Below, piece after piece: positions 7,078-32,000 of a stretch of DNA of 32,000 nt. Under the pieces are notes generated by a model. That model saw only the letters and a list, made by a program, of their open reading frames with translations. It was not told the DNA's origin and did no database searches. How positions within the stretch are numbered: position 1 is the stretch's first letter; the number at the start of each line of letters is the position of its first letter. The position numbers and the translations under genes are program-made. The DNA is taken from IMG/VR virus record IMGVR_UViG_3300045988_175865, positions 1-32,000 of that record, one strand, 5' to 3'. The DNA is from a virus.

Positions 7078-8372
7078 TTCATCAGAAAATTATTGAATAA
7101 CTTGCCTATATTAATTTTTATTATTATCTTTGCACTATAGATAAAAATAATTTAAAACAAATTAATATGGCAAAGAAATTAACAAATGAAGAAGTTGAAA
7201 AACTTCATAAAATGTATTTAGAAGGAATGACTTGTGAAGAAATTGGAAAACTTACAGGTCATAAAACAGAAACAGTATCTAAATATCTAAAAGAGAATTA
7301 TGATATAAAGCCTCAAAGAAAAATTGATTTAGTAATTTTATCAAAACTAGCAAAAGAGGGAAAAACAACTAAAGAAATGGCAGAATATTTTAATGTACAT
7401 CCTTCTGCTATATGCTATTGAAAAAAGTATTTTAATGAAGGAGATCTAAAGATTTCGCACCCTTTTTTGCAAGAAGATCATCAATTATCTCATCTACAAG
7501 AACAAATGATTCTTGGCAGTTTATTAGGAGATATGAACATAGGAAAACCTAGAAAACATCATCCTACTTGTAGATTATCCTTAGTACACTCAATTAAACA
7601 AAAAGAATTATTTATGAAGAAAGTAGAAATTCTTGGAGAATTTATGAGTAATTATAGAGAATATAGTTATTTAGATAATAGAACAAATAAAATATATTCT
7701 ACTATAAGAGGAAATAGTAAATCTCATAAAGTATTTAATGATATGTATAATAAACTATATATTAATGATATTAAAACAATTACTAAAGAATATTTAGATA
7801 TGATTAATCATCCAATAGCATTAGCTTACTGATTTATGGATGATGGAACGAATTCTGGACAAATAGCTACAAATTGTTTTTCTTTTGAAGAGGTTAAATT
7901 ACTATCGAATTGACTAGAAAACAAATTTGGTATTATTACAACAATGCACAAAAATTTAAGAAATTATACTTTATATATAGTTGCTAGCTCTAGATTTGAA
8001 TTTGATAATTTAATTTCTCCTTATATTATTCCTTCTATGAAATACAAATTAAAATTTTCTGAAATAGCAGAGTCAGTTAACTCCGTGAAAACGGGAAAGC
8101 CCTTAGAGATTTAAATACTAAACTATTATAGTAATATGATAGTGGCTAAGCTAATCACTTAGATATAGTAATAAGTTTAAATATTGGGTAATCCGTTACT
8201 AAGCTTCCTAATAGGAAGAAAGTTCAACGACTATCGAAATGCAGAAATGACAGAGTAGAGTAGAACTTAAGTAAGTTCGAAGTGCGGAGATCCTGTATAG
8301 GATAAGATATAGTCTGAACTCATAGGAAACTATGAGAGAACTTATGGAAACGATAAGTTCGTAACAAAATTG
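7078..8372 (+). mobile_element. Group I self-splicing intron 2 (about 1.3 kb) with a 5'-located HTH-LAGLIDADG ORF
   Basis: The structured 3' core (8115-8372) contains GGGUAAUCCGUUAC (about 8186-8199), AGUUCAACGACUA (8221-8233) and AAGAUAUAGUCUGAAC (8304-8319), then a GAAA-capped hairpin CUCAUAG/CUAUGAG. The end AACAAAAUUG (G at 8372) is nearly identical to the ends of introns 1 and 3. The 5' splice site is provisional (7074-7078): the U-run 7074-7079 can pair with GAAAAU at 7085-7090. Confidence 0.75.
7167..8114 (+). CDS. Homing endonuclease: two N-terminal HTH modules plus a LAGLIDADG domain, encoded in intron 2
   Basis: ORF-track 7167 and 7467 pieces are in the same frame and are joined by TGA at 7419. 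Further TGAs lie at 7830 (ALAY-W-FMDDGTN) and 7911. TAA at 8112. Motifs are LGSLLGDMNIG and WFMDDG. Confidence 0.85.
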
Positions 8373-10637
8373 AATGCAAAGGAATTAATCCTTAAAAAAA
8401 TTAATGCAGATACAAACTGGGTAGATATTTATACTATTTCTCTTATGTTAGGTGAATCACTAGATGAAATTGGTAATTTAATGATTGATGATGATATAAC
8501 AGAACTAGTAAATGATTTTACTACTAGTATGTTTAGTGATGAACAGAACTATGATAAAGTTCGTTATGTTGCTGATAAAGCATATACCTCTGAAGGAGAG
8601 AAAAAAGAGAAATATCTACAATTGCTGGATAAAGTTATATCTGCGGATGAAGTACGTATCTTAGGAAAGATACTTAAAATTAATCAAGGTCTTCCTACAA
8701 ACACTTCTGATTTATATAGTTATATTAAATCTATTGAAAAATATATAGAAAGTAGGTTTAATAGACAAATACTAGAAAAACAAGAAGAATATTTAAGAAT
8801 TGAAAAGGAGTTAGAAAAAACTTGATTAACTCCTGAAAAGAAGGAAATATTAAAAGAGGAACGAAGATTACAAAAAATATATCCAGAATTAGAAGAAGGG
8901 TCTTCATTATATAATTTCTATAATAAATACAATTTAATATATGAAGATATAAATGGTAATATTAGACATGGAGATTTAGAAGCCAAACTTGGTAAACCTA
9001 AAGAAGCTATAAAGGCTAGACAAGATTACTTTAAGTCTAGAAAAGAAATGGCTAATATCTGGCAATCTTTTGACTTAGTTAGATTTATTACCGATCCAAT
9101 CTACAAACAGGAAAGTATTGAAAAATATGAACAAAATAAGGTTAATTTTAATATTTTGGAAGTAATCAGTGCAGTTCCTCATTTTAGAGAAATGTTTAAT
9201 GTTCTTGCAATTAACAAAAGTGTTCTTAATAGTTTATCATCTAGAAATAGGTTAGAAGATATAATTCTAAACCAACTTAGTAGGAACTTTGCTGGAGTTC
9301 GTATGGATGTAAGCAAACCACTAAATAAACTTGAAATTAGAACTATAAAAGATCAGATAGATAAGTATCTTATTAGATCTTGGATTATTAGTAAAGGAAT
9401 TGAAATAAATGTTCCCGCTAGTCCTAAGAATCCAGCTCCTTATATATTAAGATTGGATAATGAAAATAATATTAACAAGTTTAGAAGTTATGTTGAAAAC
9501 TACGCTATTCCTTTATTAAAGGATAAGTTGAAAAATAATAAGTTTGTTCAGCTATTAACTTTTGGACTAAGACAAGGAGTTCCATTCTATAAGCTACCAC
9601 TTAACATGGTTCAAGTTGATAACACTCAGAAGACTAGGGCTTTATACGAAGAAGCATTATATGCTTTTAATAACCTTAATAAGGTCAAAATAACTGGTAT
9701 AGATATGAACTTAGTGGATATGTTTTATCTATATAACTTAGTTGTTAATCAAGATAAATTTGGTCCTAATTCTATGACTAGGATATTTGAAGACTTAGTA
9801 TCATCTGGTAATGAAGATCTTCTTATATATGATTTTAATAATTGAATTGATAGTCAAAATATTGAAGACTTAGTTAACAGATTTAGAACAGAAGAAAATA
9901 GTATTAGGTTTAATTTAGTAGAATCAACTCCTATTGTAGATGACACAAATTCTGATATTGGATTTAAAGAAACTCCTTTAGAAGAGGATATTGAAGAGGC
10001 TCAATATGAAGAATTAGCAGATAATCCTGTTAAAGAAAATAATGAAGTAGCTGAATATTATCAAACTAACCCTTCAACTAAATCAAAACTTATAACAATA
10101 ATTAAAGAATCTAATTTAAAAGGACTTCACATAGTTACAGATTCTGATTTAGTTAATGAAGATTCTACTACTAGAAATGCTAGGGGATTTGTGAAGAATG
10201 GTGAAATCTATATTAATGTAGATAGAGCCGAAGATGATACAGTAGTCCATGAATTTAGCCATTTATATTTAGCAGATGCTAAAGTAAATAGTCCTAATGA
10301 ATACTATTCAGTACTAAGTAGAGTTAGAAATACAGGTACTTGGAAATATATGAGAGAGATACCTGAATATCAAAATAAAAGAGGATCTGATTTTGATGAA
10401 GAGGTTCTAGCAACTTTAATTGAGCGAGCATATAATGAGGGATTAGGAGGAGCAGATTATGATGTTGCAATAGATGCTCTGAATCTTACATCTCCAGAAT
10501 TTAAATCATTTATAAAATCTGATATTCTACCATCATTAGGAGAGACATTAATAGAGAATTATAAGGTATCTCAAAAGATAGCTACACTTAAAAATAAGCT
10601 CATCAAAGATAATATTATTAAAGAGGATTGTAAATAA
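8373..10637 (+). CDS. Giant RNAP-like protein, exon 3, with a C-terminal zincin-like HExxH module
   Basis: ORF-track pieces 8370, 9048 and 10191 share one frame and are joined by TGAs at 8823 and 9843. HEFSH lies at 10248-10262 in the context GFVKNGEIYINVDRAEDDTVVHEFSHLYL. TAA at 10635-10637. Confidence 0.7.
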
Positions 10638-15104: not shown

Positions 15105-15611
15105 TTACTTGGGAATTAACACCATGTTCATTCTTTTACCTTCCAACTTTGGTTTAGATTCAACTTTAGCAATATCTTCAAGATCCGTAGTCAAACGTAA
15201 CAAAAGAGATTCTCCCTGATCTTTAAACATAATTTCTCTACCTTTAAACATTATGTATGCTTTTACTTTAGCTTTTGAATTGATAAATTCTCTAGCATGT
15301 TTTAGTTTAAATTGATAATCATGTTCGTCTGTCTGTGGACCAAATCTTAGTTCTTTAACTATAACTTTCGCTTGACCTGCTTTTAAGACTTTTTCCCGTT
15401 TTTTCTGTTGGTATAGAAATTTCTGATAATCTTGAAAAATACATACTGATACTTGGTTTTTATTGTTATCAATATATACTGATAGTTCAATTAAATCAGT
15501 ATTAGTATCTACAGCCTTCCTTAAAGCATCAGAAAGAGAAATTAACTCCCCGCTATCTTTTATTCTGATAATCTGAGAGTTAATTTCATAATTTATAGAG
15601 TAATTTTTCAT
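15105..15611 (-). CDS. infC: Translation initiation factor IF-3 homologue
   Basis: 168 aa covering both IF-3 domains. VKELRFGPQTDEHDYQFKL, FKGREIMFKDQG and EGKRMNMVLIPK match E. coli IF3 VKEIKFRPGTDEGDYQVKL, FRGREMAHQQIG and EGRQMIMVLAPK. The N-domain (IRIKDSGE...DLIEL...CIFQDYQKFLYQQ) also matches. No TGA; ATG start. Confidence 0.9.
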   Translation of the reverse strand: MKNYSINYEINSQIIRIKDSGELISLSDALRKAVDTNTDLIELSVYIDNNKNQVSVCIFQDYQKFLYQQKKREKVLKAGQAKVIVKELRFGPQTDEHDYQFKLKHAREFINSKAKVKAYIMFKGREIMFKDQGESLLLRLTTDLEDIAKVESKPKLEGKRMNMVLIPK

Positions 15612-17715: not shown

Positions 17716-18798
17716 TTAAATAAGTTTTGCAGCTAATTTTGGGTTAAGTAATAGTTTATTACATTTACCAGGATAGTGTTTGTTTAGTGTTCTTACTAGG
17801 CTAAAGAGTAGATCTTCAGTTAACAATAACTTATCATTATCAACTATCCTAAGAATACGATCTATAATTAGGTCCATTTTACACCCAGGTTTACTAAGAT
17901 ATAATAAGCTATAATTTATAAATCTAGTGGTAATTACAGAAGCTATATCGGCACGATACTTACCTTTATCATATAATTGATTCTCAAGTATCCTTTTAAT
18001 ATCGTTCCAATCCGTATTAACTAGTTCTTCTGGGGAAGGAAGTTTATCTAATTTATTAGCTATGAATGTAGTAAATAATCCCCCAACAATATCATCACTA
18101 TCAAGAAAACATCCAGAAGCTATTTGCAGAATAAAGGATAAATTCTCAGGTTTAGACCAATCATCAATACTAGAAATAGTATTAATAAACATAGTATAAT
18201 TGCGAGCATTAATTTTAGACTGCCTAGATTTTGAACGGTCCATTAATTCATCACTATAAAGAAGCATAAAGTTAATCGCCTGATTATTATACCCTTTTTC
18301 CTCGGCATATTTAGCCCAATCATATTTATCAAACTTAATATTAAAGTTTAACATACGGGTTTTTATAGCCTCATCAATTTCTGTTACATTAAAATCTCCC
18401 CCTTCAGGATTAGCTGTTAAAATAACAGTACTATTAGGAGGTAATTTCCAAGAGAAATATTCTTGTCTTGATATAAGCTCCATAATAGCAGCCAATACAA
18501 TTGGAGAGCTACGATTCACATCGTCAAGATTCAAAATTGTAGGTTTACTTAGATCAATACTTTTTATCCATTCTGGAATTGCATAGCTCATTCTAGTTTC
18601 CTCAGATATTTCCCAACCTGCTTTACTATAACTTTCTATAAGTTCTGCAGTTATCCATCTACATTCATCATTTTTACATACATAGTGCTCTTTAATTGGC
18701 CACCCGCAAATTTCTCCTGGGTCTGAAATTTGACTAAGGTTTTTCTTGATGTAATTAGCACCAATTTCACTAGCTATTTGTTCGATTAAACTCGTTTT
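17716..18798 (-). CDS. MoxR/AAA_5-type AAA+ ATPase, exon 2
   Basis: Begins KTSLIEQIA (the second half of Walker A). Walker B-like ILNLDDVNR, sensor-1-like VILTANP, and DEAIKTRM. No TGA; all eight Trp codons are TGG. Confidence 0.8.
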   Translation of the reverse strand, partial: KTSLIEQIASEIGANYIKKNLSQISDPGEICGWPIKEHYVCKNDECRWITAELIESYSKAGWEISEETRMSYAIPEWIKSIDLSKPTILNLDDVNRSSPIVLAAIMELISRQEYFSWKLPPNSTVILTANPEGGDFNVTEIDEAIKTRMLNFNIKFDKYDWAKYAEEKGYNNQAINFMLLYSDELMDRSKSRQSKINARNYTMFINTISSIDDWSKPENLSFILQIASGCFLDSDDIVGGLFTTFIANKLDKLPSPEELVNTDWNDIKRILENQLYDKGKYRADIASVITTRFINYSLLYLSKPGCKMDLIIDRILRIVDNDKLLLTEDLLFSLVRTLNKHYPGKCNKLLLNPKLAAKLI

Positions 18799-20215
18799 CA
18801 ATTTTGTTATCTCTAGAGCTTTTTATCTCTAGATTCTATATCTTCATATTCGATATAGTTCAGCATATCTTTTCACCTCTAAAAATAGTAAGGTGGAGCA
18901 CACTCGTGGGAAAATTATATTCTGTACAACAGGTTCATTTCCTATGCGTTGCACTGTAGCAAATCATTTAAATCTGCTATTAGCTCAGGATTAGCATCTC
19001 AGCCTTCCCTGAATTTGCGCTCTAATAATTTTAAAGATTTCTCTTTAAAACGGCAATCTTTGATTTTATTAAATATTTGATATTTTCTATCTAAATAAAT
19101 TGTTGATTTATAATATAGGTGATATAAGTAGGCAGTTGCCTTTATTCCCGAAAAACTAAATGCAAAAGTAAAATCGCTATGATTATTAGAAAACAAATGT
19201 CTAGGCTCTAAGTAGCTTACCATTTTACTTAAAAATTCTTTTGCACCTAAACAGCTTATTTCTGGTTTATCATATAATCCTAATGACCCATCACCATCAA
19301 AATATCCTCTAATAAAATGTCTTATTAAATCTTTAGACTTAAAGATATTTTCATTAGGAAATTTTAAAGTCAGTGACTTTTTAGGAGTACATCCGTAAGA
19401 ATTTAATGTTTCTCATAAGTGTTTATTTGTTAGAGCAAATCTACATCTAAAATATTGCTTATTGTTACATATAATAGATGATATTTTTACTCTATTACCT
19501 GTTACTTGAAAAAACTTCTGTAATTTATATAAATGTTCCACATCAGATCCTTTTAAAGAAACTTCAAAATTATAATGAGGTTTTCCATTTTTAGGAATTG
19601 AAGCAATATATCCATCAGCAAAAATAAAACCCAATCAATAAGCTTTTTCTTCGGTATCTATAATATCAAAAATGTGTTCATTAAATTTTAGCATATTTTG
19701 AGTATTAATAACTGGTATTCCAAGTTTCTTTAATCTAATAGAAAAATTGCTTCGACTAAATTTATATTTATTACTTATTTGTGTTAGGCTATAACCATTA
19801 CTATACATCTGCACTGCCTCTTCAAAGTAAGTATCTAAATTACTCTTTCGTATATTAATGTTATTATTATGAAGAATAGTGGAAATAGTATTTCTGGATA
19901 CATTATATAGTTTAGCTATATCACTACAAGTTTTACCCAAATTATATAGTTTACAAATATTAATTTTTTCAGATAATATTAATTTACTACACTCTCTACA
20001 AAGAGAATTTCTATTAGCTACACGACTAACTGTAGTAGGATGTACTTTACAAATTTTACTTATATCTTTAATCTTATAACCTTGATTATATAAATCAATA
20101 ATCTTATTTTCTAAATCATTACTAATTTTTTGCATAATATTTAAATTTTAAATAAATTAAATCTATGCAAAAGTAATAATATAAAACAATTTAATCAAAT
20201 ATTTTATAATAAATT
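18799..20215 (-). mobile_element. Group I self-splicing intron 3 (about 1.4 kb) with an HTH-LAGLIDADG ORF, splitting the ATPase Walker A motif
   Basis: On the minus strand: AAUCCUGAGC (18983-18992), CAACGCAUAG (18942-18951), AAGAUAUAGAAUC (18832-18844), hairpin UCUAGAG/CUCUAGA (18812-18833), and the end AACAAAAUUG with terminal G at 18799. Exon 1 ends ...PGIG (GGU). Exact splice sites are good to a few nt; the P1 pairing is weak. Confidence 0.75.
18942..20135 (-). CDS. Homing endonuclease: three N-terminal HTH repeats plus a double LAGLIDADG domain, encoded in intron 3
   Basis: ORF-track pieces 19635..20135, 19413..19634 and 18999..19223 are in one frame and are joined by TGAs at 19635, 19413 and 18999. 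Motifs are AY-W-LGFIFADGYI and FIRGYFDGDGSL. TAG at 18942. Confidence 0.85.
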
Positions 20216-20338
20216 ACCTATACCAGGAAGTGAAGTAAGTTGAACACTTATTGGAAATTCTCCTCTTTCTTGGAGAGATCTATTATTGTTTATAATATAT
20301 TTTAAAATAGGTTTTATTTCTCCTAATGTTAGTTCCAT
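20216..20338 (-). CDS. MoxR/AAA_5-type AAA+ ATPase, exon 1 (41 codons)
   Basis: MELTLGEIKPILKYIINNNRSLQERGEFPISVQLTSLPGIG. Joined to KTSLIEQIA it gives the Walker A sequence PGIGKT. Confidence 0.75.
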
Positions 20339-20343
20339 ATTTA

Positions 20344-21495
20344 TTACGGTATTAATACAGTTATTCCTGGAAACTTCTGAGATTTATTCCCATCAGATGT
20401 AATAATCCAGATTAAGTTTTTACAAGTTGAAAATGTAAATTTAGATAAGTAACCATCAGTAAATATCACACAAGAACTAAATTCTTTGTGTTCTTTATAG
20501 AAGTCTAGAGCTGGGCAAACATCAGTACCTCCACGACCAATAAATTCAAATTTACTTTTTTTATCATATTTACATATCTTAGTGATATTAGTATCACACT
20601 CTATAATTGTTATATCTACACCTGTTTTATATATATGATTAACTTCAGATATAAAATTAGAAAAGTCATTCATATTTATAGAACCTGAAGTATCAATAAC
20701 AACACATATGTTTGGTTTTCTTTTTAAACGAGTTCCTCTAGCATCAGGTAATCTTTTTGAAGGTCTCATCCTAGTTAATTGTAGATCACTACTAATAGAA
20801 TCTCCAACTACTCGTCTAAAATAGTTTCTCCAGTTAAAAACTGGAGGATTATTTCTTATTTTTTCAAGTATTTCTTTTAATTCTCCAGGTATGTGGCCTA
20901 CTTGTTTATTAACAAGAGCTTCTGTTTCTTTTAACTTAGACTTTACTTGATTTTCATATAATTTACGTTCGGCTTCCGATATATCTTTAGGCCACATATC
21001 ATGATTATCTATACTTTTAAAGTCGGCTAATCCTTCAGTACCAGGGATACATTTTTCAGGGTGTTCTTTAACAAACTTTTGTATTTCATTATAATAATAC
21101 CACGCCCCTCTATTGGGCTCTAGGTTCTTTCCAATTAACTTAGAAAGATTCTGTAAAGTAACACACCCATCAGGCAATCCTGTAACTATTTGGTTCACAA
21201 CTACATCTGTTGCTATATTCATATTATCATGATTATCTGCTTTGAAATCATCAGTAAGATGAAATAAACATATGTGTACTAACTCATGGGTGAGCACAGC
21301 AATACATTCAGTATCAGTAAGGTTATTCCAAAATGTTTCATTTACATATAATGTAAAATTGATACCATTAGGACCTACAGCAGCTGTTTTTACAGGATGA
21401 TTATCACTAACAATCTCCTTGCGTAGATTTAGCAAGAAAAGTCCATAAAAAGGTTGCTGAATAAGAAGCTCTTTACATGCTTTAATTAATTGCAT
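20344..21495 (-). CDS. vWA-domain protein with an N-terminal putative metallopeptidase domain (DUF2201-like); partner of the AAA+ ATPase
   Basis: HExxH in LTHELVHICLFH. MIDAS DxSxS in VVIDTSGSINMND. It lies immediately upstream of the ATPase on the same strand. No TGA. Confidence 0.75.
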   Translation of the reverse strand: MQLIKACKELLIQQPFYGLFLLNLRKEIVSDNHPVKTAAVGPNGINFTLYVNETFWNNLTDTECIAVLTHELVHICLFHLTDDFKADNHDNMNIATDVVVNQIVTGLPDGCVTLQNLSKLIGKNLEPNRGAWYYYNEIQKFVKEHPEKCIPGTEGLADFKSIDNHDMWPKDISEAERKLYENQVKSKLKETEALVNKQVGHIPGELKEILEKIRNNPPVFNWRNYFRRVVGDSISSDLQLTRMRPSKRLPDARGTRLKRKPNICVVIDTSGSINMNDFSNFISEVNHIYKTGVDITIIECDTNITKICKYDKKSKFEFIGRGGTDVCPALDFYKEHKEFSSCVIFTDGYLSKFTFSTCKNLIWIITSDGNKSQKFPGITVLIP

Positions 21496-21667
21496 ATTCT
21501 ATTTCATCTTTATTAAGCCAACGTTTAAATGTTAATCTAACAACGCCTTTTATAGGTGCATCTAACATTTTATAGTCAGCATTACATTCATAAAAAATCC
21601 TAGGATTGTTGGTATCATAAGTCCAACAAATCCCAGGATATTCGTTAGTTAAACAATATTTTCTCAT
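21482..21667 (-). CDS. Hypothetical small protein
   Basis: ORF-track ORF. It overlaps both neighbours in operon style (TAATG at 21665-21669). Confidence 0.45.
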   Translation of the reverse strand: MRKYCLTNEYPGICWTYDTNNPRIFYECNADYKMLDAPIKGVVRLTFKRWLNKDEIEYAIN

Positions 21668-22251
21668 TAGTGTTGTTTACAATATATTACGCCTTGATAA
21701 CGGCTATTAAAGCAAAGATTACATTTTCTGCAATCTCCTTTACATCTTACAGCATTATTTGGTAAATTATTAAATTGAAACTTATCTACACAGAAAAACC
21801 AACGGTGTGCTTTAATATTTGGAGAAGAAGAATTTACTATAAAGTGAACTCCGCTAAAATTTAAGTCCTCTCTACAGGTATAACAATATGTTTTAATTCC
21901 AAAAACTTTATATAACCATCGTCCAATATTAGATCACCTGTCAACAGACTGTTGATCTGGAAAATCACCCGCTTCATTAAGTCTAACGTATTTAATCTTA
22001 ACAGGAGCATTTAATATATAATACATTAGCATGTCCTTAAGATCTTTATCATCCCACAAATACATGTATGACTCAATCAATGTGTTTTTGTGCAAGTATG
22101 CTTTATATATACGTTCACATTTTTTAGCATAACATACTTTACTACATCTACAGAAGCCTAATCTTTCCGAAGGACAATGTACTGCAGATGTAATATTTAC
22201 TATGAGTGTTTCTTTTGGTAATTTGGCATTCCCATATGAAAATACTTGCAT
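21667..22251 (-). CDS. Cys-rich protein, possibly GP88-family-like
   Basis: ORF-track 21934..22251 continues through one TGA to TAA at 21667 (194 aa). The N-terminal pattern SYGNAKLP...CPSERLGFCRCSKVCYAKK recalls the xSLPAxxTCP...C..CYA signature; the assignment is from memory only. Confidence 0.45.
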
Positions 22252-22279
22252 ATTACCTAAGCCTCATCGCTCTTGAAAT

Positions 22280-22735
22280 TTAATAATATTCGTATTCATC
22301 ATAGTTTTCATTATAATAGTCTTCATCTCCAGTATCATCTCCTATAGGATTATTAAACCCATATTTAACGGAAGTTGCTTTGAAAAGAGGTAATCCATAG
22401 TAGGCATAATTATCATTAGACCAATTTTCCAAACCTTCTTCAAGGATCCAGTTCCACATCTGCACCACCTCAAACATTAGACTCGAAGAAATGCCTCTTT
22501 TATCTAAGGCTTTCTCAAAACCAAAAGCAACATCTTCTTTAAGCTGCTTCAGTACATTCTCTCTGGTAAAAGGAATAGTCTTTTTATCCCATTCTTCCTT
22601 AGTTACGTTATCTTGAAGAGTTAGACCACAAAAAGGAAACATTTCAAAGGGAATGAATTCTGCAAGTCTATATAAATCTCTTCTATCTATCGTAGGACTT
22701 TTATATGCTACTTTAATCTGTTCAAGTGTTTTCAT
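22280..22735 (-). CDS. Hypothetical protein with an acidic, Tyr-rich C-terminal tail
   Basis: 151-aa ORF that ends GDDTGDEDYYNENYDEYEYY. Confidence 0.55.
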   Translation of the reverse strand: MKTLEQIKVAYKSPTIDRRDLYRLAEFIPFEMFPFCGLTLQDNVTKEEWDKKTIPFTRENVLKQLKEDVAFGFEKALDKRGISSSLMFEVVQMWNWILEEGLENWSNDNYAYYGLPLFKATSVKYGFNNPIGDDTGDEDYYNENYDEYEYY

Positions 22736-22804
22736 CTTCTATATGTTATATTTTAGCTGTCATCTTTAGATAATTTGATGTTAGTACTTGATAATATATC
22801 TTCT

Positions 22805-23044
22805 TTATCTTTTGTTAAGTTTAAATTTACCACAACGTAAAGAACCACTAAGCCCTAAATCTAAACTACCATAAACATAAGATTTATAGAAACTTCCATA
22901 TGGGTTAGCCTCAAGACTCCAATCCTCTAAAGCTCCAATCTGATACATAATACTATCTATATTATCAATAGGAATCATCGGTAAATCTAATTCTCTATTA
23001 CTAGAATTGAGAAATTCTTCTATTAGTTGTTTAATCGTTTCCAT
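22805..23044 (-). CDS. Hypothetical small protein
   Basis: ORF-track ORF that overlaps the thyX stop by 14 nt. Confidence 0.45.
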   Translation of the reverse strand: METIKQLIEEFLNSSNRELDLPMIPIDNIDSIMYQIGALEDWSLEANPYGSFYKSYVYGSLDLGLSGSLRCGKFKLNKR

Positions 23045-23945
23045 CTAATAAGTTTCTTTTAATAAACTCTTCTTTTAAAGGAATAGCTAGTTCCTGAGCC
23101 TGAGGATGAGCTGCTTTATCAGTTCTAAGTTTAAAGAATCCTCTCCACTGTTCAATAGTACCAGTCATAATTAATTCTGTTTTTGTGCACAATGGAAGAA
23201 TTTCTCTAGCCTCTTGAGCTTTACAACCTCTGTTAATAAGAGCTTTATAATTCACTTCAGCTGATTCACACTGAGATAAGAAAATGTCAACAGAGTCTCC
23301 TTCAAAATGTTTTAGTATGGTATTGGGAATATTATTTTTATCTGCAGCATCTACCCAATCGTTATCCCAATATTGATATCTAGCCTCCTTTAAATCAGTC
23401 CAATAAGGAATAATAAACGTAAGTTCGTTATTAAATTTATCGGAATTGTAATTGCAATATCTTGTTGATTGTTCCGCAAATGATAACACGCGATGGCGAC
23501 AAAACTCACGACTTATAGAAATTGGAAGAATAAACTTTACTGTAATTCGTTTTTCATGATATTCAGTAGGTTCACAGAGATGTTTTAAATCGTCAAGCCA
23601 GCCATTTTCATATAAAACTCTGTAATTAGTTGTGATATGATAATTACCATAAGAATCTGTATTAATAACTGAGTAAGAATTAGAAAGGTATTGTTTAATT
23701 ACCCAATTATCACCTATTATATTGGAAGCATGATCCTTATGAATATAAAGATATACAGTGCCATGTTCAAGCATTGCGGTATGCTGTCTATCCTTAATCA
23801 TATTAACAAACTTCTCTGCAGAATCTTCTGTAATACGATCCTCTGACTTATAACATGTTCTTCCTGCTCTTTCAATTTGTTTATATATTCCTTGAATACC
23901 TGGCTCTTGTTCTAAAATTTCAAAACTACTTTTAATAAGTTTCAT
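23031..23945 (-). CDS. thyX: FAD-dependent thymidylate synthase ThyX
   Basis: ThyX signature RHRVLSFAEQSTRY (RHRxxSxxxxSxR), plus the N-terminal AGRTCYKS and HTAMLEHG blocks. 304 aa, no TGA. Confidence 0.9.
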   Translation of the reverse strand: MKLIKSSFEILEQEPGIQGIYKQIERAGRTCYKSEDRITEDSAEKFVNMIKDRQHTAMLEHGTVYLYIHKDHASNIIGDNWVIKQYLSNSYSVINTDSYGNYHITTNYRVLYENGWLDDLKHLCEPTEYHEKRITVKFILPISISREFCRHRVLSFAEQSTRYCNYNSDKFNNELTFIIPYWTDLKEARYQYWDNDWVDAADKNNIPNTILKHFEGDSVDIFLSQCESAEVNYKALINRGCKAQEAREILPLCTKTELIMTGTIEQWRGFFKLRTDKAAHPQAQELAIPLKEEFIKRNLLDGND

Positions 23946-23953
23946 ATAATTAT

Positions 23954-24250
23954 TTATTCTTTTTGTTTATAAGTTATAGTTGGAATTGCAATAAATTCTG
24001 AAACAAAACAGGGTTTATCAATATCTTTCCAACTATTCTCCTCACTATATAATTTAGAAGGCCCAGTTATACCAATATATCCGTTCTCACACTCATATAC
24101 ATCTGTTGAGATTTCATACCATCTATGTTCATCTATATACAGATTACTAGCAACCTTTTTAATTCTATTATTGATAAATTCTTCAGCACTATATAATGAA
24201 TATAGAGGATAATTATCCCTTATTAAGTTTACTGCTTCATTAACTTTCAT
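23954..24250 (-). CDS. Hypothetical protein, tandem paralogue A
   Basis: 98 aa. Shares MKV.E...I, Y.CE.G...ITG and E(F/Y)I.IPT..Y..K with the adjacent ORF. Confidence 0.55.
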   Translation of the reverse strand: MKVNEAVNLIRDNYPLYSLYSAEEFINNRIKKVASNLYIDEHRWYEISTDVYECENGYIGITGPSKLYSEENSWKDIDKPCFVSEFIAIPTITYKQKE

Positions 24251-24549
24251 TATCGACGATATTTTGGAGCATACATTACAGTAGGAATTTCAATATATTC
24301 TTCTGCAAATGCTGCTATATTAAATTCCTCATAATCTTTCTTTTTTATATTATTCTTAAGACCTGTAATTGCAACAAACCCGTCTTCACATTGATAAATA
24401 TTTGTTACTATATTAAAATATTTATGCTTTGTAATATTATAGTTCTCAACTACAATATCATCCTTATATAAACCTACAGCTCTAGTTGCTTCAATTAAGG
24501 AATAATAATCAGTATTACTAATTATGGATATAACTTCTTTTACTTTCAT
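24250..24549 (-). CDS. Hypothetical protein, tandem paralogue B
   Basis: 99 aa. Collinear similarity to 23954..24250, with a TAATG junction between them. Confidence 0.55.
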   Translation of the reverse strand: MKVKEVISIISNTDYYSLIEATRAVGLYKDDIVVENYNITKHKYFNIVTNIYQCEDGFVAITGLKNNIKKKDYEEFNIAAFAEEYIEIPTVMYAPKYRR

Positions 24550-24560
24550 TTTATTATATA

Positions 24561-24746
24561 TTATATTTTAATAATTTTATCACAACTTTTCAAGTGAACT
24601 TTTCCACTAAGATCATATTTTAATTTGATTCTTTCTGCAGTAAATCCTATAACTTCTGCTTTTACAAACCAAGATGAAGTTCGTGATCGCTCAATACAAA
24701 TAACTTGATCTCCAATTGCTAATATGTTACCTAACCAATCTTTCAT
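24561..24746 (-). CDS. Hypothetical small protein
   Basis: 61-aa ORF joined to the upstream ORF by a TAATG junction. Confidence 0.45.
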   Translation of the reverse strand: MKDWLGNILAIGDQVICIERSRTSSWFVKAEVIGFTAERIKLKYDLSGKVHLKSCDKIIKI

Positions 24747-25204
24747 TATGTATTCATTTTATAAAACATTTGTATCTTTTCTTTCAAATCATATAGTATT
24801 GCTTTTTCCTGAACAGTATTTACAAATAGTTCGTACATATTATACTTTTCATCATTATATATTAACAACATATCATTAATACTTACATCAATATAATTAC
24901 CTCCTATATAATATCGTAATTTAAAATTAATATATGAATTATTACATTCATACTTAATATCTGTATAACATTCTGAAGCAATATTTAATAAATTATTAAT
25001 AAAGTTCTTTGTATAAGATACAACCATTCTATTTGTAATTGGAATCCTACTCTTTGTTCGGTCTTCAATATTTCTAATAACATCATTTACAACACTATCC
25101 CTTGCTATTATTGTAGCTTGATCTGATTCAATTTTACAAGTTCGAGATTGAAGATTAGAAACAAACAGTTGAATTTCTTTTAAAGTTAAATTTTCATCAT
25201 TCAT
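24746..25204 (-). CDS. Hypothetical protein
   Basis: 152-aa ORF joined to the DNA polymerase stop by a TAATG junction. Confidence 0.5.
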   Translation of the reverse strand: MNDENLTLKEIQLFVSNLQSRTCKIESDQATIIARDSVVNDVIRNIEDRTKSRIPITNRMVVSYTKNFINNLLNIASECYTDIKYECNNSYINFKLRYYIGGNYIDVSINDMLLIYNDEKYNMYELFVNTVQEKAILYDLKEKIQMFYKMNT

Positions 25205-26129
25205 TAAAATAATTTTAATTGTTTATGCTTAAACATACATACGATTTTTTGTGCTGCAGCTATATAAAAAGAATAATTAATATTAGATGGTAATTCATCA
25301 GATTTATTAATAGTATTCAAAATTGTTACGCCAGAGTCAGTTAATAGTTTAATATAGTTATATCGTCTACCATTAGAATCTATTTTACATTTATATAGCC
25401 ATGGACCATCAGTAGATATATAATATCGGTTAATACGTTGAATTAACTGACCATCATATTCTACAGAATAATCTTTACTAACTTTTTGATAAGTTATAAA
25501 CTTATTAATATCCTTACAAGCATAAATAGTATCTGCAACAGGAATTCCATCTGCTAAACATTTATTAATAGCTTCGGGAATAATAACTGCATCCATACCT
25601 TTGCCAAGTTTTACCTTGTCGATAAACATACCTTTTGTCTTTAAAAGACTTGGATCTTTTGTTTCAGAATAACCTTCCTTAATTGCAAGATAGTCATTAA
25701 TAGCAAACTGATACATTGCTTCAAATCTATCCTCTTCAAGAGTAAGTTTAGTTAAGATTTCCCAATTCTTGCAAATTTCTTGTACATTGGTATATTTGTT
25801 TCGTTTTAATAGTACAAATAATCCATCAGTATTAGCTTGAATTATTCTACAACCTGCTTGAACTAATTTCTCCGCTAACATTAATAACATCAATTGTCCA
25901 TTAATTCTAATTTGCATAACAGCATATGGAGAATAACAAAAATTATGTTCATTTTGTAGATTACCAGACAAACCGTTTAAAGCAAGTTTTAGAGTTTCAT
26001 TCTTAACTTTATTTCCATTATGTTTAGCTTCTAATCGTTCATCTCGAATTTGAGAGTAAACTTCAAGGAATTCTTTACCAAGATGTTTTGGATAAAATCC
26101 ATATTGTATAATAATGCTAGGATATAGTG
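25204..26129 (-). CDS. Family B DNA polymerase, exon 2 (palm/thumb)
   Basis: Starts (S)LYPSIIIQYGFYP. It contains the motif B-like KLALNGLSGNL and the motif C-like IQANTDGLFV. TAA at 25204. Confidence 0.85.
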
Positions 26130-26514
26130 CATATCCATTTTAATTTTCGACTATATCTTAATTTTTATATCTAATTTGTTCTGAATTTAATTCAATGTAG
26201 TGTCATTTAAAGCCTTTATATGAAGCTTTTGTACCTTGACAACAACAATAAATGGATATAACCAAATTAAATTTATAAAAATTCGCGGCGTTTCGAATAA
26301 AACCTTATAAAGTTTTATCCTACTCTCTTTCGAGATAGTCTGTGAACCTTGATCCTATAAGGATCCTTGGCTGCGGATTATAATACTTATTAAGTTTTTA
26401 CTTTCTCATAAGCGTTATCTTATGTGCTACACTATGTATTACTACTAGCTGCAGTATTAATAAGTTAAATTAAGTTCCCGCAATTAACCGCGTTTTACTT
26501 GCGCCACTATATTA
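26130..26514 (-). mobile_element. ORF-less group I self-splicing intron 4 (385 nt) in DNA polymerase motif A
   Basis: On the minus strand: P1 is exon UUGCGU with intron GCGCAA (U.G at the splice site). P10 is intron AUAGUG with 3' exon CACUAU. Core elements are AAUCCGCAGCC (26369-26379), GGUUCACAGACUA (about 26335-26349) and AAGAUAUAGUCG (about 26148-26160), with terminal G at 26130. Removal gives exactly 650 codons. Confidence 0.9.
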
Positions 26515-27538
26515 ACGCAACATCTATATCAATAAGCATTTCATCTTTTGTAGGTATAATTTCCTCAGGTTTATTAACACTATGAATACCTCCAACTCCA
26601 ACAGTATATTCTAATTCATCAAATATAAAATGTTTCTCATATCCTTTACGTCCAGGAGAAACTGTTTGCTTTTTCATATCAGCTAATACACTTTTAAGTA
26701 TAGGTGATTCAAACTCAATAAAAGGTAAAATAACCTCATTTAATGGAATTAAATCGCAAGGTGACCTCAAATCTTTAATTTGATTTCAGGTTTGTCCTGT
26801 TTTTTCAAGATACTTTTGAGTAATAATTTTCATTCCAATATTAACTCCATCTTTATTAAGTACCTTTACTCCATACTCATCTTCAATAGCTATACGTAAA
26901 TCAATATCCTTTTTACATCTATTTAATAATTCCTCAGTAGAATCAACATCATTAATATTATATTCTATCATTTTAGGAATTTCAGATACAGGAAGATAAT
27001 CTTGGAAATCGCCTTCATATTCTTGAACATTTCGAAACTGCATAGTTACTTGCATCTCCTTTAACCCTACTCTCAACTTTTGAGAATAAAGCATAGTTAA
27101 CAAGTCTAATGTTTCAAAATAAATTTTATATTTCCACTTTGTTCAAGAACTAAAATTAGTATCAGTAGATTGAATTATTAAATTACTAAGTTTAAATAAA
27201 GATGCGCATATCTCTGAATACGACATCTTTAACATTACTTTATGAAAATCAATAATATAATTAATAATAGGATTATCATAATGAATATTATTGTATCCAC
27301 AAAATATTTTATCTGTTTTAAACTGTAAGTTTGTAGTATAGTTTCTTTCTCAAATACCAATTTGAGATTGATTTCTAACAGTTCAAAATAAATCTACTAA
27401 CTCTTGTAAATTATTCTTACGTTCAGATATTTCAAAAAATAAGCGTTCTCCTGTTTCTGTATTTTTTACAACACAGTGAAACACATTAGGAAATATTTCA
27501 ATATCATAAACGTATACAGTTTTATTTCTAATTAACAT
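26515..27538 (-). CDS. Family B DNA polymerase, exon 1 (3'-5' exonuclease domain and start of palm)
   Basis: ATG at 27538. Exo I is YVYDIEIF and Exo II-like is GYNNIHYDNPII. At least four in-frame TGAs. It ends ...IDIDVA + t, and splicing restores DIDVASLYPS. Confidence 0.85.
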
Positions 27539-27801
27539 TATACCTCATCATATGTAATTCTAAATATTTCAGGTTTGCAAGGATAAAATTCATTCCTAAC
27601 TCCTCTGATAATATAATCTCCAACTGAAGCTTTCATTATACCTTCAAGAGTTGGAATTCCAAGCGAATAATCATTTTCTTCTTGTGTATTGTTATAACGC
27701 AAAAGTTGATTTCCGACAAACTCTTCAACTTCTTCAACATTATTTCCAATATACTGAATAGCCTCTATTTCTACAGGTTTTTTTCTATATTTCTTTATCA
27801 T
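27538..27801 (-). CDS. Hypothetical small protein
   Basis: 87-aa ORF (KKPVEIEAIQY...GDYII...FYPCKPEIF) joined to the polymerase by a TAATG junction. Confidence 0.55.
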   Translation of the reverse strand: MIKKYRKKPVEIEAIQYIGNNVEEVEEFVGNQLLRYNNTQEENDYSLGIPTLEGIMKASVGDYIIRGVRNEFYPCKPEIFRITYDEV

Positions 27802-27991
27802 TTATAACGGTATATATTTTATTAAAATCATCTTCATTAATCCAAAATCTGTATCCGTTCCAGTTGCAATAAAAACCATTTACTCTTTTATTCTCAGTAT
27901 GCTGAACTTGCATTTTTAATATTTGATGATTATAATCAAATTTTGTCATTGGCTGAACTTCAACTTCGAGGTTTTTAACTTTTGCTTTCAT
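27785..27991 (-). CDS. Hypothetical small protein
   Basis: 68-aa ORF that overlaps the downstream ORF by 17 nt. Confidence 0.45.
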   Translation of the reverse strand: MKAKVKNLEVEVQPMTKFDYNHQILKMQVQHTENKRVNGFYCNWNGYRFWINEDDFNKIYTVINDKEI

Positions 27992-28100
27992 TAAAACAAA
28001 CTGCTAATCATCACACTTAAATATAACAAGTTATCTTGTAAAGCTATATTATTAAGCTCACATAGATTGTTATATATCTTTATATAAAGTTTACAAATAT

Positions 28101-28265
28101 TTAACATTTTCCTATTAATTTTAACCAATCTTCCTCTACAAAGTAAGACATTCAACCATATTGATCTAATCAACTCTCTTCATTAATAAGACAGGCATGT
28201 TCATTAAAGTCAGGATGTTCCATTAACTCCTGAGTATACGGTCATTCTACAATTACATATTTCAC
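28101..28265 (-). CDS. Candidate small protein visible only when TGA is read as Trp
   Basis: (V)KYVIVE-W-PYTQELMEHPDFNEHACLINEES-W-LDQYG-W-MSYFVEEDWLKLIGKC, with TAA at 28101. GTG start at 28265, or an internal ATG. It contains three in-frame TGAs. Confidence 0.35.
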
Positions 28266-28266
28266 A

Positions 28267-28713
28267 TTATAGCTCATCTAATTCTGTTTGTAACATTTCA
28301 GGATAATATTTCCGATAAAACATTCGAATTGTATCTTCTCCTACCTGTAAATCCCTATTTTTATCCCTTTTAATAGCTTCATAGTATGGGATAACTATTT
28401 CCTTATATTGAATATTTGCATTGAATTTAGACGCTATTTCTTCCCATTTAGCCTTAGTTTTAGGATTAAGATTAGTGGCATCAATAACTACATTATATCC
28501 ATTAGTTAAAGCCTCTTCAATCATTAGTTTTTCATAGATACTAATTAACTTTTCTCTAGAAGGTACCCAATAATCTCCACACATTAATCTAATATCATCC
28601 CGATTTATTCTAATCCAAGTACTCTTATCTTTCACAAATTCTTTTGCAAAATAGGTTTTACCAGATGCTGGAGGTCCAACAAGTACTAATAATATCTTAT
28701 TCTCGTCTTTCAT
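28267..28713 (-). CDS. P-loop kinase resembling the T4 polynucleotide kinase N-terminal domain (AAA_33-like)
   Basis: Walker A LVGPPASGKT, INRDDIR, and VVIDATNLNPKTKAKW. 148 aa. Confidence 0.7.
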   Translation of the reverse strand: MKDENKILLVLVGPPASGKTYFAKEFVKDKSTWIRINRDDIRLMCGDYWVPSREKLISIYEKLMIEEALTNGYNVVIDATNLNPKTKAKWEEIASKFNANIQYKEIVIPYYEAIKRDKNRDLQVGEDTIRMFYRKYYPEMLQTELDEL

Positions 28714-29206
28714 TACACTCTTTCCACATTTTGTATATAGGCTCAGAAATCGTTATAAAATCTTTAAGAGGATTAACAATTTTTCCTTTGAAAACGTCAA
28801 TTCTATTTACTTTAGATTCTTTGATAATCTGAATTCCCCATAAACATTCTCTGGTAATATCCATATCTATATTAGGTAAATCCTTATTTATACCTTGTAA
28901 ATAAGTTACCCTGGCAATAATATATCTTCTAAGTTTAATAATATCAGGTTTTTCATAAATATTTACATATTCTTTAATCTTACCTGATTTAGAAAGAATA
29001 GAACATACATACGGTAACAAACTACCAGATTTCATTCTTAAAAATCAATCATCTAAGCTAAAGAATGTAACATTATCATTTTTAGAAGTTATATTATCTC
29101 CAACAACAATATATTCATAACCTTCTTCATAAAAAGAACAAGGAATCTTATATATAAATTTGATATCCTTGTTCTCTTTTAGTTGCCTTATTTCTTCTTT
29201 AGTCAT
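28697..29206 (-). CDS. Hypothetical protein
   Basis: ORF-track 28697..29035 extends through one TGA to the ATG at 29206 (170 codons). Confidence 0.5.
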
Positions 29207-29553
29207 TATACTAATGCATCAAATTCTCCAGGAACTGCTAAAATATCTTCAATATTCTTTTTAACATAATCCTCAACCTTTATAGTTACTAAACCTACAA
29301 CTTTTAATTTAATTTCATCTGGGATGAGGTAGGTAAAAATAATAGTATTACGGTTATCTATTCTTTTATATAGTGATAAATAAACATTTGGTATATATTC
29401 TTTATTTTCATCTAACATAAGAGAAAATTCTATAGAGTAAACTTTATTTTTTCTTAGAATTATACTCATATCTCTATATCTAATATAACCTTCTTCAACA
29501 GTTCAGGTGTTTAAAATAGTAAGTATTTGTTCGTTTGTTAACATATTATTCAT
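29206..29553 (-). CDS. Hypothetical protein
   Basis: ORF-track 29206..29469 extends through one TGA to the ATG at 29553 (116 codons). Confidence 0.45.
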
Positions 29554-29653
29554 ATATCTATAGTACTTTATTAAGTTCTTCGGCTCCATATTAAGAATAC
29601 TACTAACTTAAGTTTATAAGCTTCAATTTTACCAGGATCCATTAACATCTTTA

Positions 29654-30562
29654 CTAGTACTTGATTTCATTTGATACTACATCTTTTGGTACACATTTTT
29701 TACAATAAGGGCTAATCCAGCCTCTAGTTATATATTTAGCTTTGGCCCCACAACATATACATGTTCTTTCTGAAAGTTCTTCGTACGTATTAATGATAGG
29801 ATATTCACAACCATTTGGAGAACCATTAGAATACCAAGCAAGCATCCCAAACTTCTCCTTAATCTGCATAATCCTATACTTATATAGGTAATTATGCTTT
29901 TTGAGAACTTTCTTCAGATCCTTACACATCTGTATACCAAAAGCTTTCCTTCACCCAGTAGGCATATCATCTAGTTCTGTAGATGTAGGGATAAAACAGA
30001 TTCTGTTTATAATATTATCCCAAATAAAAATAATAGAATTGTACACTTTCTTATAGAACTTATCTACGCAAATTTTGAGTGTTTTAAAAGCAAATCCATA
30101 ATTATACTTTGTTATCTTATTTTTATGAACATGATATATAATATATGGATAATTAGTAAATATATTAGTAGAAGTAGTTATACCAGTAATAGTAAAGCCC
30201 TTTCCAACATGTTTCTGAAGATTAAATTCAAGCGGCGAATCAATGTATGTACTTTCAAATTTTAATATACCAGAAGGGGTTAAGTTAACATTGAAATTAT
30301 ATTTACCAACATCTCTAATGATAGAATTAAATTCAGTGCATTCTTTAGGGTCTTTATAAAATTTATATGATAAATTAATTTCAGTATAAGCTTTTTTGTA
30401 ATATTTATTACTTAATTTCACAAGCCAATTAGGACTTACTTGATGTTTGTCTGTAAATCTATTTCTAGGGTATAAAAAAGGAAATCTAATACACAAGTAG
30501 ACACACTTAGGAATTCTAAGTATCCTATTTATTTTATATTTTAATCTATGAAGGTATTTCAT
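29654..30562 (-). CDS. Hypothetical protein with a C-terminal IKEKFG motif and zinc ribbon
   Basis: ORF-track 29951..30562 and 29654..29929 are in one frame and are joined by TGA at 29951. C-terminal features are QIKEKFGMLAWY and CICCG...CKKC. TAG stop. Confidence 0.55.
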
Positions 30563-30908
30563 CTACACATTTTTTAAAATCTAAAAACATCTTATTCTCC
30601 GAATGATTTTCAAGTAATTCATCTAATGATGATGCTACATCTGAAACTAATTCAGAATTAGGGTCAGAAAGGTAATCATATAGCTCATTAAATGTAGAGA
30701 ACTTGTTTTTATCTGAACCTATAGCATACAACCATATTAACTCAGAGTTGTATTCTCCAAAGTATAGTTCCAATAAAATACATACAGTACCACAAGCTAG
30801 TTGTTTTATTTCTATTAAATCTTTAGAGCACTTAGAATCTACAAACCGTGTTTTTTGAATGCATACTATTATAGCTAACAAATCTTCTCTGTTTAATTTA
30901 TGTTTCAT
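30546..30908 (-). CDS. Hypothetical protein
   Basis: 120-aa ORF that overlaps the downstream gene by 17 nt. Confidence 0.5.
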   Translation of the reverse strand: MKHKLNREDLLAIIVCIQKTRFVDSKCSKDLIEIKQLACGTVCILLELYFGEYNSELIWLYAIGSDKNKFSTFNELYDYLSDPNSELVSDVASSLDELLENHSENKMFLDFKKCVDEIPS

Positions 30909-31049
30909 TATATATCAATTTTATATTTTAAAGTCTTCATAATAAGTAGTTAGGAATAGGCTTATCTGCGGCAGTATAATTAAAATATTTAATTATTACT
31001 AGCTTTATATCTGATTTCGTCCTTGCAGTATCTCTTAAATAAATTAGTA

Positions 31050-32000
31050 TTAAGTATTATCATCCTTTTGATATATAATTAAATCACTTGTAGTACGACT
31101 ACAGGCTACATATTGTAACTGCCGAAGTTCTTCTTTATTTGTACATCTCCAGATATTCTCCATATCTATCATTACAATAGAATATTGAGATGACTGTGAT
31201 TTATGAGTTGATATACAATATCCATAATCTAGTGATTTACGTTTAATTATCCTATTATCGTATCTTATATCAAAAGTAGTTAAAAATGATTCTGATAAAT
31301 CATAATATTTACGCCATAAAGCATTAACTCTTTTTTTATATACATTATTCTTATCAGCATTAACCGTAGATAACCTAAGTCATTCTAACCTATAAGCTAG
31401 ATTATTAATATTTTTTTCTGAATTATCTTTAGATAATACTATTACTTTAAAAGTAGAATCATCTGATTTTAACCCTAATTCCCAAGCATTTAATTCTAAA
31501 TACTTAGTTTTATTTACTGATGTTATAATATAATCACGAGAATTTTCTATTTTTAATCCTAAATAGTTAGTTGTGTCATAACCTGTTAGAACTTCTCCAA
31601 CAACAAATTCTTCTTTATATCCTAAATATTCTCTAATTAATTTATTTAATGCTTTAATTCTATTATTAGTATAAGAAACTAATTTTATTAAATTAGAATC
31701 ACTAAAATCTTTAGATATTTTAAATAAATAACTATACTTTTTAAGCATTTGTACAATATTGTTACATACTGTAATATTAGAATAATCATCAGAAATGCTT
31801 TTAAATTTATATAATGGCTTTTCTCTTAAATAATTTAATACTTTAGATAAACAACTTTCTTTTTGTCTATATATCTTATTTAGATAAATTGTTCTATTAC
31901 TAAATGCTTTAGAAGGTTTATTTTCTTTTACAGAATAAAGCTGTTTAGGATCTCCTACAAATACTATCTTTGATGACTTATATTCTTTTAATAGTAAATC
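31050..32000 (-). CDS. SF1B RecD/Dda-like DNA helicase (C-terminal part; N-terminus outside window)
   Basis: Open to the window edge. IVFVGDPKQL (motif III) lies near 31940. One TGA at 31380. ISTHKSQSSQYSIVMID (motif V) and LQYVACSRTTSDLII (motif VI). TAA at 31050. Confidence 0.8.

Follow-up and report, generated by a model that had tools for sequence, protein, structure and literature searches.

Phage group I introns that carry homing endonuclease genes target codons for functionally critical residues in conserved genes (PMC3984707; the IA2 intron of Pf-WMP3, PMC3428280). The best comparisons here are T4 td, nrdB and nrdD and the IA2 introns of Bacillus phage and cyanophage DNA-polymerase genes, such as that of Pf-WMP3. 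The subject of this report is an insert of the same type in a window of 32,000 nucleotides (nt), the term denoting the whole stretch of DNA that was analysed (positions 1 to 32,000 of IMG/VR virus record IMGVR_UViG_3300045988_175865). The minus strand of the window holds an ATPase gene that is interrupted between the glycine and lysine codons of its Walker A P-loop. The interrupting sequence, 20215-18799, is very probably a self-splicing and homing, that is mobile, group I intron in the AAA_5 ATPase gene of a recoded phage.

The insert resembles the described phage introns in several respects. The core is of the self-splicing type, a U at position -1 is paired with G, the last intron base is a G, and an extra hairpin follows helix P7, perhaps comparable to that of IA introns. 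Codons of a critical motif are hit, the endonuclease open reading frame (ORF) lies partly over core helices, and presence or absence is sporadic among close relatives. However, the host gene encodes an AAA_5/MoxR-like ATPase with a DUF2201-VWA partner, and not a polymerase, ribonucleotide reductase, thymidylate synthase or terminase. In addition, the ORF is located, as read here, in loop L1 rather than in P6 or P9, and it needs TGA to be read as tryptophan (Trp).

A second described system is close in a different way. Passages of the preprint by Borges et al. (bioRxiv 10.1101/2021.08.26.457843) report that in Agate phages a 'group I intron endonuclease ... inserted in an early gene' prefers TGA, and propose that in-frame stops delay the endonuclease until late infection. 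Like that endonuclease, the one described here is TGA-biased and lies within an early gene that uses the standard code, in a gut phage recoded at TGA. The contigs studied here are ~166 kb long, whereas the lineage analysed by Borges et al. is ~127 kb and the clade mean is 154 +/- 27 kb. Those passages name neither the host gene nor an RNA structure, and theirs may or may not be the same intron, host gene or clade. Full-text literature searches found no paper on a phage MoxR-like ATPase whose Walker A motif is interrupted by an intron. What is new is the host gene and the site, not the kind of element, and knowledge of the mechanism of group I introns is unchanged.

The interrupted Walker A motif and its empty site

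The locus is composed of the following parts.

20216-20338, minus strand: ATPase exon 1, 41 codons, ends ...LTSLPGIG, last base the U of GGU
18799-20215, minus strand: probable group I intron, 1,417 nt, with exact presence/absence against contig L001 and a covarying fold
18942-20135, minus strand: putative homing endonuclease ORF, 397 codons plus UAG, with its own ATG 80 nt downstream of exon 1
17716-18798, minus strand: ATPase exon 2, 360 codons plus TAA (at 17716), begins KTSLIEQIA

Exon 1 is translated as MELTLGEIKPILKYIINNNRSLQERGEFPISVQLTSLPGIG, after which its frame closes (GGT/AAT TTA TTA TAA, the slash marking the end of the exon). A mechanical ORF list starts exon 2 from a TTG located 3 bases upstream (18801), which gives a 361-amino-acid (aa) protein. 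Excising the 1,417 nt from the minus strand joins the 41-codon exon to the downstream ORF as a 401-aa AAA_5-type ATPase. Walker A is then contiguous (LPGIGKTS), with the codons GGU-AAA-ACG restored. The ligated exons would read CCUGGUAUAGGU-AAAACGAGU (20216/18798), and the junction in a spliced read can also be written CCTGGTATAGGT-AAAACGAGTTTA. In the joined protein Pfam detects AAA_5 (25.5 bits, cut-off 22) and AAA (24.1 bits, cut-off 21.2), both of which span residue 41/42. The match to phrog_1297 'ATPase' (3e-29) and the best solved-structure match, the midasin AAA domain (...GSPGVGKTSLI...), also span the junction, and a Walker B-like ILNLDD is readable. By its contiguous Walker A motif and its profile matches above cut-off, the host gene encodes an AAA_5 (MoxR/midasin-like) ATPase.

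Comparison with other genomes provides a direct view of the site without the insert. The joined ATPase has 325 homologues in a collection of 5.8 billion proteins. Full-length homologues measure 399-415 aa and cover the query from end to end, and GxxG[IL]GK[ST] is uninterrupted in 10/10 that were inspected. This is what a preliminary description of the DNA, made from its letters, had anticipated, and among the truncated calls that were traced none proved to begin naturally at KTS. The gene for the top homologue, P0001, lies on L001, a contig of 166 kb whose flanks share 99.2-99.8% identity with the window. L001 lacks exactly these 1,417 nt. Its 1,206-nt gene equals exon 1 plus exon 2 at 1204/1206 nt, its first 123 nt being identical to exon 1, and it reads CTTCCTGGTATAGGT/AAAACGAGTTTAATCG at the insertion site. 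Both the intron and exon 2 begin with AA, so the boundary may slide by up to 2 nt. A U at -1 together with a terminal G is satisfied solely by the coordinates 20215-18799. The proposed splice sites, which had been offered as provisional, are now fixed within that slide, and translation and the L001 allele bear out the proposed mini-exon, its downstream partner and the joined PGIGKT.

Gene callers have repeatedly met the interrupted allele. The 361-aa TTG-start protein (P0018), which is the N-terminally truncated ATPase that had been foreseen, is found in 51 index blocks of public assemblies, and the intron is present at 6/6 loci fetched. The truncated ATPase is therefore a widespread annotation artefact. 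Six truncated calls were traced (P0018, P0020, P0099, P0102, P0105 and P0120), and each lies directly downstream of a copy of the ATPase intron. A further call, P0107, follows a different intron, which occupies another site. Of the protein clusters of ATPases with 89% identity or more, 17 have no interruption and 3 are truncated calls, which makes the insert polymorphic. Alleles with and without the intron occur in both the ~100% and the ~90% identity lineages, and the near identity of the flanks of genomes with and without it argues for recent gain or loss. The same junctions recur in at least 24 contigs from differing samples and assemblers. INPHARED holds no close relative, and the ATPase protein matches there do not exceed 30% identity.

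More distant relatives have the intron too. Their ATPases are 59% (L008, P0099; L141, P0102; L140, P0105) or 58% (L011, P0120) identical to that of the window.

L008, same G/K site: 291 nt, ORF-less
L141, same G/K site: 275 nt, ORF-less
L140, same G/K site: 350 nt, ORF remnant only
L011, same G/K site: full-ORF version; the contig begins inside the ORF

The last ~260 nt of the intron are common to the window and these relatives, with ~91% mean column identity. The endonuclease gene is thus seen at several stages at one site: a full ORF (window, L002-L007 and L011), a remnant (L140) and no ORF (L008 and L141). Of the matches to the 16-mer ACAGTGCAACGCATAG in IMG/VR, 5 are true copies and 5 are chance matches in unrelated high-GC phages. 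The 15-mer AAAGATATGCTGAAC gave more than 119 matches, which were taken as mostly chance.

A separate observation concerns contig L142 (1387-2500), in which Walker A is intact (GSAGLGKSAIVEQIA). The ATPase gene there is interrupted after ...AQITEPGD by another group I intron, which carries a GIY-YIG ORF. In terms of the window ATPase this position is after SDPGE, and it is a second insertion site in the gene family.

A covarying group I fold

The proposed helices and elements, in transcript order, are listed below.

20211-20218, minus strand: P1 5' strand GGU/AAUUU, 5' splice site after U 20216
19052-19061, minus strand: internal guide sequence and P1 3' strand AAAGAUUGCC; AUUGCC kept in all copies, directly 5' of P2
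19028-19051, minus strand: P2, 10 base pairs (bp) with a GAAA loop; two compensatory pairs; stem also in the Rfam alignment
19016-19022, minus strand: P3 5' strand GAGCGCA, pairs with 18896-18902; C-G to G-C in 3/6 copies; Rfam agrees
18985-19012, minus strand: P4-P5 (UCAGGG..CCUGA; classical P and Q elements), invariant in all copies; high-posterior Rfam P4/P5 alignment
18953-18984, minus strand: P6/P6a hairpin; A-U to U-A in 3/6 copies; recovered by RNAalifold
18943-18947, minus strand: P7 5' strand GCAUA, overlaps the ORF stop UAG (18944-18942), pairs with UAUGC at 18863-18867; A-U to G-C in L141
18909-18942, minus strand: extended hairpin in the P7.1/P7.1a position; compensatory changes at 4/9 pairs
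18896-18902, minus strand: P3 3' strand UGUGCUC; covariation, Rfam and RNAalifold
18874-18895, minus strand: P8 hairpin; two compensatory pairs
18863-18873, minus strand: J8/7 (AAAAGA) plus P7 3' strand (UAUGC); Rfam aligns it to consensus AAGAUAUAGUC; P7 covaries
18837-18857, minus strand: P9 hairpin; two compensatory pairs; 3' strand GAUAUA inside AAGAUAUAGAAUC
18812-18833, minus strand: P9.1 hairpin; compensatory changes at 5/7 pairs
18799-18811, minus strand: 3' tail GAUAACAAAAUUG with terminal G 18799; invariant in all copies; boundary set by L001

The fold was scored on six distinct intron copies from four lineages. In the proposed structure 99.0% of cells form a standard pair, versus 35-48% when the pairing is slid by 1-3 columns. 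Similarly, 18/68 pairs are changed on both sides, versus 0-3 for the slid structures, and none of 500 shuffles reached the observed pairing values. Compensatory pairs occur in every helix but P4-P5 and P6. RNAalifold, run without a supplied structure, returned the same helices except the pseudoknotted P7. Structurally, the core has what defines a group I intron: P3-P9 with the P4-P6 and P3-P8 domains, a P3/P7 pseudoknot (P3 pairing GAGC-CA with UG-GCUC, P4 pairing UCAGGG with UCCUGA), and covariation that includes P3 and P7. At the 5' end, P1 consists of 8 contiguous pairs between GGU/AAUUU and AAGAUUGCC, one of them U-1:G; in L008, L140 and L141 this register yields 9, 7 and 6 bp, respectively. 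At the 3' end the intron closes with ...AACAAAAUUG/AAAACG, and the terminal G is invariant in all six copies. Together with the exact gap in L001, the covarying fold supports the original proposal of a group I intron that splits an AAA+ ATPase within its Walker A motif.

Rfam gives a compatible picture. Intron_gpI (RF00028) matches the window core with 31.0 bits (E 2.2e-6, a 281-nt stretch searched alone) and the ORF-less L008 copy with 32.4 bits (E 9.5e-7, full model 1-253). The alignment yields the same P2-P6, P8, P9 and J8/7, over the full length in L008. The Infernal scan advised in the preliminary description thus finds the family, but at a score under the curated gathering value of 50 bits. 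The group I assignment rests on covariation and not on Rfam. Nor does the significance of the insert derive from short motifs, since bare 10-13-mers do not exceed chance expectation in so AT-rich a window (0.65-5.4 matches expected from shuffles at the mismatch levels searched). It comes from comparative evidence, namely the L001 allele, the clean presence/absence and the covariation. A covariance model of the ATPase intron (R1) found no paralogue elsewhere in the window, the next best scores being 20.6 and 19.8 bits.

Some details of the earlier architecture had to be redrawn. The motifs AAUCCUGAGC, CAACGCAUAG and AAGAUAUAGAAUC, the hairpin and AACAAAAUUG are all where the preliminary description had put them at the 3' end, and CAACGCAUAG contains the P7 5' strand plus the ORF stop codon. 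However, AAGAUAUAGAAUC had been read as J8/7 with the P7 3' strand, and this was wrong. It runs from the P9 3' strand through a GAA linker into P9.1, of which it takes in the first two bases, and J8/7-P7' is in fact AAAAGA-UAUGC. The weak P1 of GUUUUAUA with UAUAGGU fares no better. GUUUUAUA has no counterpart in the ORF-less L008 copy and was rejected as guide sequence; the conserved guide is AUUGCC beside P2. A first hand-drawn core (P3 GCAAAU/AUUUGC, P7 AGAUU/AAUCU) was also abandoned. That P7 is broken in L008 and L011, and the drawing was superseded by the covarying, Rfam-consistent model.

The region between P7 and the P3 3' strand bears on classification. IA2 introns have P7.1 and P7.2 joined by G-U-A (PMC3428280). 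In contrast, the ATPase intron has one extended covarying P7.1/P7.1a hairpin (18942-18909), and a P7.1 plus P7.2 pair linked by G-U-A was not seen. In its extra hairpin after P7 the intron may be IA-like.

The endonuclease ORF and the question of mobility

The ORF inside the intron stays open solely when Trp is assigned to the three TGA codons in its frame. With that reading, Pfam confirms the 397-aa product with three helix-turn-helix (HTH) repeats and LAGLIDADG motifs that had been described within the 1.4-kb insert. The HTH repeats match HTH_7 (5e-15), HTH_23 and HTH_38. The two LAGLIDADG motifs, LGFIFADGY and IRGYFDGDGS, keep their acidic residues, as in the single-chain type. LAGLIDADG_3 scores 29.6 bits (cut-off 22.5), LAGLIDADG_1 stays under its cut-off, and phrog_4645 'endonuclease' is matched at 1.9e-53. 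On this evidence the product is a putative endonuclease, with a predicted activity and target. The P1 3' strand (19061-19052) lies beside P2, and this places the ORF in loop L1. Its last ~38 codons (NKIKDCRFKEKSLKLLERKFREGWDANPELIADLNDLLQCNA) are the in-frame reading of P1'-P2-P3-P4-P5-P6-P7, and its UAG stop overlaps P7. The full 397 codons are kept in five independent contigs, and the ORF call in L004 is shorter (332 aa).

The sole DNA match in INPHARED is MT835492.1 23256-23684, an unannotated 122-kb human faecal phage, with 76% identity to part of the endonuclease ORF. This suggests that the endonuclease family is shared beyond the clade of the window phage.

How might the element work? 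In the pre-mRNA the guide AAAGAUUGCC would build P1 by pairing with GGU/AAUUU, a U:G pair marking the splice site. Once the P3-P9 core had folded, an external guanosine would attack after U20216. The terminal G18799 would then dock and the exons would be ligated, leaving ...PGIGKTS... intact in the 401-aa ATPase. In co-infections, the endonuclease would presumably cut intron-less alleles at the conserved P-loop codons, and repair would copy the intron in (homing).

Several points weigh against this reading. One is that splicing itself is predicted from the DNA sequence. Rfam is a second. The scores of 31.0 and 32.4 bits fall short of gathering, whole-window scans at gathering and E-value thresholds show no intron, and sub-threshold matches appear only in narrow sub-windows, which means that a routine Rfam pipeline would miss it. 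P1 uses just three exon bases (GGU), and P10, as read here, amounts to a weak helix of 2 bp. Because the six copies represent four lineages, the compensatory changes cannot all be counted as independent events. A sequence search of solved structures gave no match for the LAGLIDADG/nuclease part. Finally, an ORF tail that runs through the ribozyme core may or may not be tolerated.

What if the intron splices but no longer moves? In this sub-case the endonuclease would be inactive, and presence and absence would reflect vertical inheritance plus precise loss. The ORF-less and ORF-remnant copies demonstrate that the endonuclease gene does decay, and the HTH-rich N-terminus is unusual among LAGLIDADG enzymes, in addition to the missing structural match. 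Nevertheless, the window and five independent contigs have the ORF at full length, and both LAGLIDADG motifs retain their acidic residues. Alleles with and without the intron in both identity lineages, between flanks that are 99.2-99.8% identical, also fit poorly with an element that has stopped moving. Loss of mobility is therefore considered unlikely, if worth keeping in mind.

A dead insertion is a far less probable explanation. A decayed or non-splicing insert would inactivate the ATPase and leave either a 361-aa fragment without a P-loop or a pseudogene. The sub-threshold Rfam score, the predicted status of splicing and the shortened ORF call in L004 could be taken in its favour. However, neither exon is damaged, together they are 99.8% identical to the allele that lacks the insert, and the ribozyme core is kept with compensatory changes, even in ORF-less copies in ATPases no more than 59% identical. 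Furthermore, the intron is on dozens of independent contigs and the downstream gene is always open.

Inteins commonly occupy P-loops, LAGLIDADG domains are known from inteins too, and the two kinds of element share the logic of a LAGLIDADG-type homing enzyme placed at the most conserved NTPase codons. Even so, the reading frame and the recurrent junctions exclude all three alternatives to an RNA intron, namely an intein, translational bypass and an assembly chimera: the insert is out of frame, with a stop four codons past exon 1 and a separate ATG for the ORF, its covarying RNA helices lie mostly outside the endonuclease domain and point to a ribozyme fold and removal at the RNA level, and the junctions are the same across the samples and assemblers noted above.

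Recoding, timing and other elements of the window

The probable intron sits in a recoded genome. Reading TGA as Trp is justified because the window then resolves into ORFs of 1,852, 1,468 and 775 codons (code 4), which are fragmented under the standard code. G+C is 23-33%. A tRNA scan of the window found none, and hence no TGA suppressor tRNA within it. Related contigs are IMG/VR viral genomes of 142-176 kb and metagenome contigs of ~166 kb; the source is a gut-metagenome phage of roughly 166 kb in which TGA is recoded to Trp.

TGA codons are unevenly distributed. They are concentrated in the giant plus-strand genes, where most Trp codons are TGA, and in endonuclease ORFs, and are absent from several minus-strand genes (ATPase, VWA, ThyX-like and IF3). 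The window endonuclease has 3 TGA and 0 TGG, versus 0 and 8 in the ATPase exons (Fisher p = 0.006), and the neighbouring DUF2201-VWA gene has 0 TGA and 5 TGG. The same intron in L011 has 5 TGA and 0 TGG in its endonuclease, versus 1 and 7 in the ATPase. In L142 the GIY-YIG ORF has 2 TGA and 0 TGG, versus 0 and 8 in the ATPase.

All Trp codons of the endonuclease are TGA and its host gene uses TGG only, so the endonuclease would be translatable only once TGA-to-Trp recoding is active, presumably late. Perhaps, then, homing is gated by the genetic code. In this tentative scenario, which is possible but has less than even support, the endonuclease could not be translated during synthesis and splicing of the early ATPase mRNA, and would be produced only after the switch to TGA=Trp. 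Because the ORF frame passes through P1'-P7, late translation and splicing would be mutually exclusive. Recoding and the overlap of the ORF with the core would together act as a timing switch for a selfish element. The idea of a code-gated endonuclease is itself already published.

The window also holds other features, among them further introns.

20344-21495, minus strand: upstream partner gene of the ATPase, DUF2201 metallopeptidase-like plus VWA-like; syntenic in all related loci
15105-15611, minus strand: ORF corresponding to a 168-aa gene in syntenic loci with both IF3 domains (PF05198, PF00707), beside a dNMP kinase gene
26137-26506, minus strand: canonical-looking DNA-polymerase intron with classical P/Q/R/S elements UAAUUGCGGGAAC, UAAUCCGCAGCC, GGUUCACAGACUAUC and UUAAGAUAUAGUCGAAA
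~5559-6453, plus strand: group I intron in a giant plus-strand gene; LAGLIDADG ORF 5665-6429 with 4 TGA and 1 TGG; motifs UUAAUUGCUGGAAAC, ACAAUCAGCAGCC, GGUUCAACGACUAAU and GAAGAUAUAGUCUGA; ends ...ACACAAUUG
~7141-8375, plus strand: further intron in the same plus-strand gene; HTH + LAGLIDADG ORF ~7164-8114 with 3 TGA and 0 TGG; 3' core GGGUAAUCCGUUAC, AAAGUUCAACGACUAUCG and AAGAUAUAGUCUGAAC; ends GUAACAAAAUUG, as the ATPase intron does

This brings the number of group I introns in 32 kb to at least four. Rfam Intron_gpI detects the DNA-polymerase intron (37.8 bits, E 3e-8) solely when the stretch is searched alone, and misses it in a scan of 21400-32000. The HTH part of the intron at ~7141-8375 is weakly similar to the ATPase-intron endonuclease (2e-5). 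In a recoded phage, an IF3 of its own could have a bearing on the take-over of translation.

What does the ATPase intron mean for these phages and their annotation? The true product of the locus would be the 401-aa ATPase with its P-loop intact, and the 361-aa protein of the gene callers is an artefact. The intron itself goes unseen both by standard gene calling (code 11, no introns) and by Rfam at default thresholds. It extends the range of phage genes invaded by such introns to an AAA_5/MoxR-like ATPase. Moreover, its relatives form a natural series at one site that extends from full endonuclease ORF through ORF remnant and ORF-less intron to the empty site. Finally, it is an independent and well-resolved case of a TGA-only endonuclease inside a TGG-only early gene, and it makes the timing idea of Borges et al. 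testable on a defined construct.

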